Origin: a virus
Taxonomy: Duplodnaviria > Caudoviricetes
DNA length: 64,000 bases
IMG/VR virus record: IMGVR_UViG_3300044630_004720
Direction: 5' to 3' (one strand)
A program made the position numbers and the translations under genes. The notes below the pieces were generated by a model. The model was given only the letters and a program-made list of their open reading frames with translations, was not told the origin of the DNA and did not search any database. Of the stretch, positions 56,714 to 56,855 are shown piece by piece (position 1 is the first letter of the stretch; every line of letters starts with the position of its first letter).

Positions 56714-56816
56714 AAAAAACCCCAACAAGGATGTCGGGGTTTTAAGGTCTTTCAGTGGATTCAACTCCACTTACTTTTGAAAAAAACGAAAGGTAATCGA
56801 CAAAGAGAACCTCTGA
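56714..56816 (-). ncRNA. Candidate ~100-nt sRNA complementary to sRNA-A (sRNA-B)
   Basis: Minus-strand TATTTAT at 56821-56827; hairpin AGTGGA/TCCACT; terminator CCCCGAC/GTTGGGG plus T6, whose G-U pair works only on the minus strand. Confidence 0.5.
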
Positions 56817-56855
56817 GAATATAAATATATATGATATATTAAAAAAGTCAACTAT

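Follow-up and report, generated by a model that had tools for sequence, protein, structure and literature searches.

Two small structured RNAs, RNA A and RNA B, are encoded by separate genes on opposite strands of a large phage genome and are complementary to each other in two conserved segments, and we consider, with a probability of about one half, that they form a functional RNA-RNA pair acting in trans. The window (the whole stretch of 64,000 nt of phage DNA that was analysed) comes from the genome of a large uncultured phage, and the two loci lie 20.4 kb apart in it. The initial annotation had presented them as a possible two-RNA switch. That reading held up as far as the RNA genes, their conserved complementarity and the fit between partners of the same genome are concerned, but not in the cofolding test that it had proposed for the switch. 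A literature search returned no description of either RNA. Even if the pairing lacks function, RNA A and RNA B constitute two new, well-supported structured RNA families, and knowledge of regulatory RNA in Bacteroidota and their phages is very limited.

The GC content of the window is 33%, and an SD-like motif is found upstream of only 2 of its 68 ORFs. The motif ATATTTAT(A/T) occurs 23 times, mostly between genes and in the same orientation as the next gene, and often stands 3 to 6 nt before the ATG of many window genes, so that these mRNAs probably have little or no leader; it looks like the main promoter element of the phage, for leaderless or near-leaderless mRNAs. A second promoter class, TTGACTTTTT, was considered and dropped for want of any enrichment. 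Genes that lack SD sequences and are often leaderless fit a Bacteroidota host; Bacteroidota ribosomes ignore SD sequences (PMC7797042, PMC9976891). The ribosomal protein bS21 is encoded by close relatives of the window phage. Their clade is similar to the lake phages with bS21 genes and sizes of up to 331 kb reported in PMC9723584, a paper that is silent on small RNAs. RNA A and RNA B are carried by this clade of large lake phages, whose genes point to Bacteroidota hosts. A GOLLD RNA, a tmRNA and the array of seven tRNA genes that adjoins both of them sit between the two RNAs (Table 1), and the bS21, tmRNA, tRNAs, GOLLD RNA and clpC-like unfoldase of these phages all touch translation or protein quality control.

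Table 1. Coordinates of RNA A, RNA B and the surrounding features in the window.
Feature	Position	Strand	Description or basis
RNA A	~36290-36393	plus	alignment A3 (14 sequences) and CM R2
ATATTTAT motif of A	36278-36285	plus	
Hairpin H1 of A, loop TTTGGTC	36302-36308	plus	
Block 1 of A, GAAAAAACGAAAGG	36329-36342	plus	pairs with B linker (duplex predictions)
Tract AAAGGAGGTA of A	36338-36347	plus	
Block 2 of A, TCGGCAAAGGGG(TCCT)	36355-36370	plus	5' arm of A's terminator hairpin
Terminator hairpin of A	36357-36387	plus	
SGNH/GDSL-like hydrolase gene	36414-37358	plus	between RNA A and tmRNA; starts MLNKIKLHVFGDSFTQ
Phage tmRNA	37372-37769	minus	tag peptide GNVYNQMEVAGLLATSKVAA
GOLLD RNA	40600-41007	minus	full-length, 320 bits
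Small lipoprotein gene	56484-56684	minus	likely start 56666; MKKYTLLLAVIVALTLSAC..., lipobox LSAC
Locus B	56712-56822	minus	conserved RNA gene; matches no Rfam family
RNA B	56712-56816	minus	~100-105 nt: P1, U-rich linker, P2, GACC tract, terminator; CM R1 and alignment A1
Terminator of B	56714-56743 (stem-loop 56743-56716)	minus	intrinsic; 12-bp stem, loop TCCT, T6; terminator scan
Single-stranded GAAAGACCTTAAA of B	56741-56753	minus	conserved; GACC nearly invariant
Hairpin P2 of B	56755-56770	minus	GTGGA / loop GTTGAA / TCCAC
Linker of B, CCTTTCGTTTTTTTC	56779-56793	minus	predicted single-stranded; complementary to A 36329-36342
Hairpin P1 of B	56791-56812	minus	stem AGGT/ACCT, 56812-56809 with 56794-56791
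P1 loop of B, CTCTTTGTCGAT	56807-56796	minus	12 nt; complementary to A 36355-36366
Promoter of B	56821-56851	minus	promoter scan; -35-like TTGACT 56851-56846, 16-nt spacer, TATATT 56829-56824
ATATTTAT motif of B	56828-56821	minus	overlaps promoter TATATT
clpC-like AAA+ gene	56856-58874	minus	Pfam AAA_2, AAA_lid_9, ClpB_D2-small
Other ATATTTAT(A/T) motifs (examples)	5158, 10174, 30437, 44076	plus	
Other ATATTTAT(A/T) motifs (examples)	11796, 16295	minus	

The motif and the T6-ended terminator that had been assigned to the minus strand of locus B, antisense to RNA A, are both present there, and the 5' end of RNA B (~56816) was deduced from the promoter position. CM R1 detects RNA B in the window with 119 bits (E 6e-22). 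The covariation analysis is based on alignment A1, which comprises 58 RNA B sequences and gives a consensus fold of 21 pairs, 12 of them with compensatory changes; with the structure held fixed, 95.2% of the cells pair and 13 pairs have changed on both sides. None of 500 shuffles matched the observed values, and slid registers dropped to 34-65% paired. The P1 stem pairs 14/32 and 15/31 account for seven compensatory changes, all five P2 pairs show changes on both sides (97.6% of cells paired), and the terminator is paired in 100% of cells, with double changes at five pairs. The P1 loop positions TCTTTG.CGA are invariant in the 58 sequences and the linker, conserved across the family as CCTTTTCGTTTT, is invariant in parts. 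In the promoter region of about 65 relatives, ATATATATTTATAT is near-invariant and TTGAC is kept in most. A G.U at terminator pair 96/108, found in 41 of the 58 sequences, and the U-tract together assign RNA B to the minus strand. Judged from these conserved features, RNA B is a stand-alone RNA gene of the minus strand with a predicted promoter, two hairpins and a terminator.

Comparison with known families and folds was negative. RNA B stays below the gathering score of every family in Rfam 15 (the closest, the rnk leader, scores 31.6 bits where 55 are required), Rfam 15 gives no relevant match to RNA A, and the GenBank phage records contain no relative of RNA B, of RNA A or of the region around RNA A, and only distant matches to clpC. 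ARAGORN found no tRNA at RNA B. A tRNA-like three-way-junction fold, in which a long-range helix would join the 5' AGGT..CTTTG to the 3' CGAAAGACC, finds no support in covariation: the long-range pair 15/82 is broken without compensation in seven sequences, and the local P1 pair 15/31 compensates six times. In a separate observation, the locus L048:6657-6838 lacks ~36 nt with respect to the near-identical L071:6657-6876, namely the -10 motif of B and the whole of P1, and retains the linker, P2 and the terminator; either B has a natural deletion there or the gap arose during assembly.

RNA B has the clpC-like gene on one side and the small lipoprotein gene on the other, and it might be nothing but the clpC 3' UTR with a terminator and the promoter of the lipoprotein gene, a reading that we find hardly credible. 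Because no terminator separates clpC from B, clpC transcripts must run through B, whose predicted terminator also ends them, and one RNA-library contig does span the end of clpC and the 5' part of B. However, a terminator requires neither such an invariant loop nor the compensatory changes of P1 and P2, the promoter is conserved, and RNA B survives both its detachment from clpC and the replacement of the lipoprotein gene. The element was found by BLAST downstream of clpC in ~70 of 80 clpC-anchored IMG/VR loci, with 70-89% identity; five relatives carry an insert of ~690 nt between clpC and B and retain the motif and the RNA, and the downstream gene differs in one divergent clade. The lipoprotein gene, directly behind the B terminator and with its own TATATTT ~7 nt before the ATG, is kept there in most, not all, relatives. 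Since B is kept despite the insert and the differing downstream gene, it is more than a leader or a UTR of clpC, the case that the initial annotation had named as fatal to its proposal: the promoter region persists across the insert and no single downstream gene accompanies the RNA. Parts of the B region occur in ten metatranscriptome runs, and in four of these, from freshwater or rivers, low-depth contigs cover pieces of clpC, B and the lipoprotein gene; such contigs tell nothing of strand, ends or level and may stem from DNA carry-over, so that they speak neither for nor against transcription of B.

RNA A is present in ~40 IMG/VR contigs, identified with a DNA pattern and CM R2, and its locus carries AAAGGAGGT. 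The RNA consists, in order, of GATATTTAT, H1 with its loop TTTGGTC, AAACGAAAAGGAGGTG, a small hairpin GAGGT/ATCTC and a terminator often capped by a UUCG loop. Its numerous G.U pairs, the changes from A-U to G.U and the UUCG tetraloop of the relatives place it on the plus strand only, so that covariation and the strand asymmetry of G.U support A and B as separate RNA genes on opposite strands. RNA A displays an extended Shine-Dalgarno-like AAAGGAGGU, and no small ORF follows it: no ATG, GTG or TTG lies at a usable distance, and the only frame behind this tract starts at ATC and varies in length. The rpsU leaders retrieved from Flavobacteriales MAGs read CGAAYAAAAGGAGGTAAAA, and RNA A carries AAAGGAGGU(G/A). 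The resemblance to host rpsU leaders extends beyond the SD proper, to the CGAA ahead of the A-run, and four such leaders (L145, L148, L149 and L150, from Flavobacteriales/Bacteroidota MAGs, at ~330-400) share TTTCGAAYAAAAGGAGGTAAAA. Weak R2 matches of 28 bits were also obtained at L132:1501-1589 and L133:1501-1589, in records whose clpC-like genes are at 58-59% identity. The RNA there is shorter, contains TGAAAGGAGGGGTCC and a terminator, immediately precedes a tRNA/tmRNA-like 3' end and may be a distant counterpart of A; at loci L076 and L077 of these records BLAST revealed no B-like element beside the clpC-like genes.

The complementarity was first noticed as an alignment of 56777-56812 with 36327-36370, and the letters at these coordinates agree with it. 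On the plus strand, the left block TTGAAAAAA(A)CGAAAGG is shared at 16 of 17 nt, with one extra A in B, and the right block TCGRCAAAGRG..CCT at 12 of 16, with 8 extra bases in A between the blocks. Three transitions in the right block are all G in A and A in B(+), and all become G.U when the A(+) RNA pairs with the B(-) RNA; one transversion becomes U.U. The claim that transitions yield G-U pairs in exactly that orientation is therefore correct for 3 of 3 in the right block, but the original figure of four out of five depends on the weak third block. That block exists, in a better-conserved version joining the H1 loop UUUGGUC of A (36302-36308) to GACC..AAA of B (56741-56749), but on its own it is unfavourable. 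All three blocks are collinear and antiparallel.

At the RNA level, the linker of B (CCUUUUCGUUU) is complementary to AAACGAAAAGG in A, and its P1 loop CUCUUUGYCGA to UCGRCAAAGGG in the 5' arm of the A terminator; this loop of 11-12 nt and the pyrimidine-rich linker are the unpaired parts of B that are conserved best. Block 1 is unpaired in A and overlaps the 5' half of the extended SD-like tract, in which AAACGAAA(A)GG is conserved in A3; block 2 lies inside a hairpin arm and offers 12 contiguous pairs, three of them G.U, to the P1 loop and P1 5' arm of B. As had been pointed out, the B(-) RNA thereby resembles the 3' arm of A's own hairpin (CTCTTTGT, TTCGTTT). The helices of blocks 1 and 2 bracket the GGAGG of A, and that of block 1 overlaps the AAAGG that the 16S tail would need for an extended helix. 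Net of opening, the predicted energies are -5 to -7 kcal/mol for block 1, -2.5 to -5.5 kcal/mol for block 2 and +1 kcal/mol for block 3, and opening the A terminator costs 8-10 kcal/mol.

How specific this pairing is within one genome was judged in several ways. When 12,788 segments of the window are ranked as duplex partners of the B 5' region, A comes first apart from B itself (-35.1, the next one -29.3, with a window background of -11.6 +/- 3.9); besides B's own locus, the window contains a single exact complement of the B loop, namely block 2 of A, and no other target of the P1 loop in the window exceeds chance. Only 8 of 300 dinucleotide shuffles of A reach the observed duplex energy. The whole-molecule cofold gain of -6.3 kcal/mol, however, is no better than that of dinucleotide shuffles of A (82/300), so that the comparison with shuffled controls suggested at the outset was not significant; the gain is ordinary because an A-rich RNA meets a U-rich RNA. 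In a 97%-complete relative of 324 kb, A ranks third of ~54,000 segments as a duplex partner of B, behind segments that are purine-rich, coding and pair with many G.U. This rank and the ordinary cofold mean that a single genome gives moderate support only. Regulation of host rpsU by B was also considered and set aside: duplexes with the rpsU leaders of Bacteroidota MAGs reach -9 to -16 kcal/mol, near background, for leaders whose organisms may differ from the true host.

If the resemblance of B to the 3' arm of the A terminator served transcription in cis, B would pair with the 5' arm of the nascent terminator and cause read-through into the hydrolase gene. That gene starts 20 nt past A and its own promoter-like motif is weak, as this mechanism would have it, but the terminator arm is costly to open and the gene is confined to the window and a few relatives. 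In most relatives it is absent (compared with L087:1380-1600), and A is followed by a strong bidirectional second terminator and then by the convergent 3' end of the tmRNA, so that read-through would lead nowhere. We therefore regard read-through as very unlikely. The hydrolase gene between A and the tmRNA looks like a gene insertion, and the arrangement in most relatives indicates that A is a stand-alone RNA and not a hydrolase leader.

The pair was then compared across 17 non-redundant genomes that carry both RNAs, and it is mainly this comparison that supports it. Each RNA is single-copy per genome, and in all 13 records in which they can be placed, including the 97%-complete 324-kb genome, A and B are convergent on opposite strands; their spacing is 4-25 kb in the relatives, and the loci are not opposite strands of one locus, which sets them apart from cis-encoded antisense RNAs. 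At the level of sequence, a promoter motif and an intrinsic terminator on opposite strands are conserved for both. The initial annotation had made its proposal depend on homologues keeping the complementarity, and all 17 genomes do, keeping two blocks of 11 nt; of 30 anchored positions, between 23 and 29 are paired. In the correct register the two blocks form 12.1 and 13.8 pairs, whereas no slid register exceeds 9.9. Over the 17 genomes, A and B from the same genome fit better than mixed combinations, both in energy (-29.4 vs -27.6 kcal/mol, p=0.00075) and in pairs (25.9 vs 24.9, p=0.0001), and an exact permutation with nine clade representatives gave p=0.004 for pairs and p=0.007 for energy; these permutation tests ignore phylogeny, and the informative co-changes amount to ~3-5 independent events.

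The same-genome advantage comes from three sources. The Y of the B loop is C in four genomes, and its partner in A is G in all four; where Y is U, the partner is G in five genomes and A in eight, so that G.U is tolerated and A.C never occurs at this position (one-sided Fisher p ~0.05). In 16 of 17 genomes, the run of A residues in RNA A is as long as the run of U residues in RNA B (3 or 4 nt); the rare length of 3 nt is found in both RNAs of the window, G035 and G026 (Fisher p ~0.006). The third source is a set of joint changes in the helix extension of G026. Other changes do not follow the pairing: a G-to-A change in A of G035 is compensated inside A's own hairpin and leaves A.C against B, and C insertions in B of G040, G026 and G039 mismatch the A-run of A. 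Two partial records with B have no detectable A within 28-40 kb downstream, and the pattern search found no A in five further partial clpC-like records, four of them with detectable B; these are 20-73% complete, so that absence of A is not demonstrated there. Since both blocks are almost invariant, the complementarity is inseparable from conservation of each RNA for reasons of its own.

Differences between the two DNA copies have a direction that bears on another explanation. Transitions between the copies are G.U-compatible in 54 cells and incompatible with it in 12, a bias that matters for RNA pairing and not for similarity at the DNA level. The blocks do lie on the same DNA strand at both loci and the same motif precedes both, so that they could be sites for a phage DNA-binding protein beside two ATATTTAT promoters, with no contact between the RNAs. 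Such sites, however, would occupy +5 to +35 in B and +40 to +80 in A, in opposite orientation to the promoter, and no further copies occur at other window promoters; together with the G.U-directed bias, this makes shared DNA sites most improbable.

The main rival to a functional pair is common ancestry, which we regard as a real if lesser possibility: A would derive from a duplicate of B on the opposite strand, or the reverse, and the blocks would persist without functional pairing for the use of each RNA, as terminator hairpin and purine tract in A and for other targets or a protein in B. It is in keeping with this that the two loci resemble each other collinearly, on the same DNA strand, over P1, the linker and, weakly, P2/H1, that A's own hairpin accounts for its R position and G-rich arm, that G035 compensates within A only, that the cofold stays at shuffle level and that two records hold B without detectable nearby A. 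Simple paralogy, in any case, is not the relation between them, since R1 with filters off finds only B in the window. The full model has no match to A on either strand, whereas a profile of the P1-P2 core of B has the A minus strand as its best non-self match (E=0.053), and any kinship of A with the antisense of B is thus old and partial at most. The similarity is limited to segments that are unpaired in B, everything else having diverged. Moreover, independent drift would not favour same-genome pairings, nor would it bar A.C and yet permit G.U. Finally, the invariant ACGA of A has no evident role inside A and lies beyond the reach of the 16S tail (tail: PMC9976891), so that ribosome mimicry fails to explain it and pairing with B does.

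For the functional pair, which we continue to prefer, the following mechanism can be proposed. The accessible linker of B would nucleate on the unpaired purine tract AAACGAAAAGG of A, and the P1 loop, as a mimic of the 3' arm of the A terminator, would then displace the 5' arm of that terminator. The GGAGG core of A would end in an internal loop between two intermolecular helices, the usable SD-like tract would be shortened, and B would in this way switch off or retune a mimic of a ribosome-binding site. Ribosomes of Bacteroidia respond only to unusually long SDs (PMC9976891), so that the shortened tract should leave the mimic disabled or retuned. Equally possible, A could sponge B, whose main targets would lie elsewhere; the role of regulator may fall to either RNA, the other being regulated or serving as a sponge. 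Together the two RNAs may form a switch, made by the phage, that acts on the host ribosome. A conserved RNA pair in which one partner imitates the only strong ribosome-binding site of the host class and the other can clamp it would offer a concrete and testable way into the question of how phages act on ribosomes that normally hide their anti-SD (PMC9976891, PMC7797042, PMC9723584).

A more specific form of this mechanism, which we consider unlikely, is a two-RNA timer. In it, A would be a gene-less copy of the extended SD that Bacteroidia reserve for the bS21 gene and would capture free 16S tails or ribosomes without bS21. B, transcribed from its own promoter next to the gene for the clpC-like unfoldase, would clamp A on either side of GGAGG and, at another stage of infection, release or block this capture. 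Such a timer would be without precedent as an RNA-RNA switch that acts on the accessibility of the anti-SD, and also as an sRNA/anti-sRNA pair for which a virulent giant phage supplies both genes.

Several known systems share features with the putative pair. RNA I/RNA II of ColE1 and CopA/CopT of R1 are cis-encoded antisense control RNAs that initiate by loop-loop contact. As in these plasmids, a hairpin loop would contact its complement before the helix extends, and the genes read opposite strands of similar DNA; unlike them, the A and B loci are 4-25 kb apart, share two or three short blocks and have no link to replication. DsrA and RprA activate rpoS by anti-antisense pairing in the mRNA leader. 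B would likewise pair with one arm of a hairpin and remodel the surroundings of an SD, but in rpoS an mRNA leader is targeted and translation is the result, whereas A is a non-coding RNA. In enterohaemorrhagic E. coli, the prophage-encoded AgvB reportedly acts on GcvB, as SroC is also said to do. The common features are two small RNAs from separate genes, one of them phage-borne, that meet in trans over short conserved stretches and of which one titrates or inactivates the other; the differences are that A and B are both encoded by a lytic-type giant Bacteroidota phage, that A would be an SD mimic and not an mRNA regulator, that two helices would bracket its motif and that the A-B pair is a prediction from sequence. 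To our knowledge, Bacteroidota lack Hfq.

The host circuit closest to RNA A is the extended SD of rpsU, read by Bacteroidia ribosomes whose anti-SD is sequestered (PMC9976891, PMC7797042). RNA A carries the same kind of tract, and the B site overlaps the 5' half of it; unlike the rpsU circuit, A has no ORF behind its SD, and B, which pairs weakly with the host rpsU leaders retrieved (-14 to -16 kcal/mol), has no counterpart in the circuit described. Pairs of an sRNA and its anti-sRNA, or sponge, have been reviewed (PMC12197685, bioRxiv 10.1101/2021.04.25.441314), and the A-B pair would work like them, but with both partners encoded by the phage and one of them a mimic of the SD.
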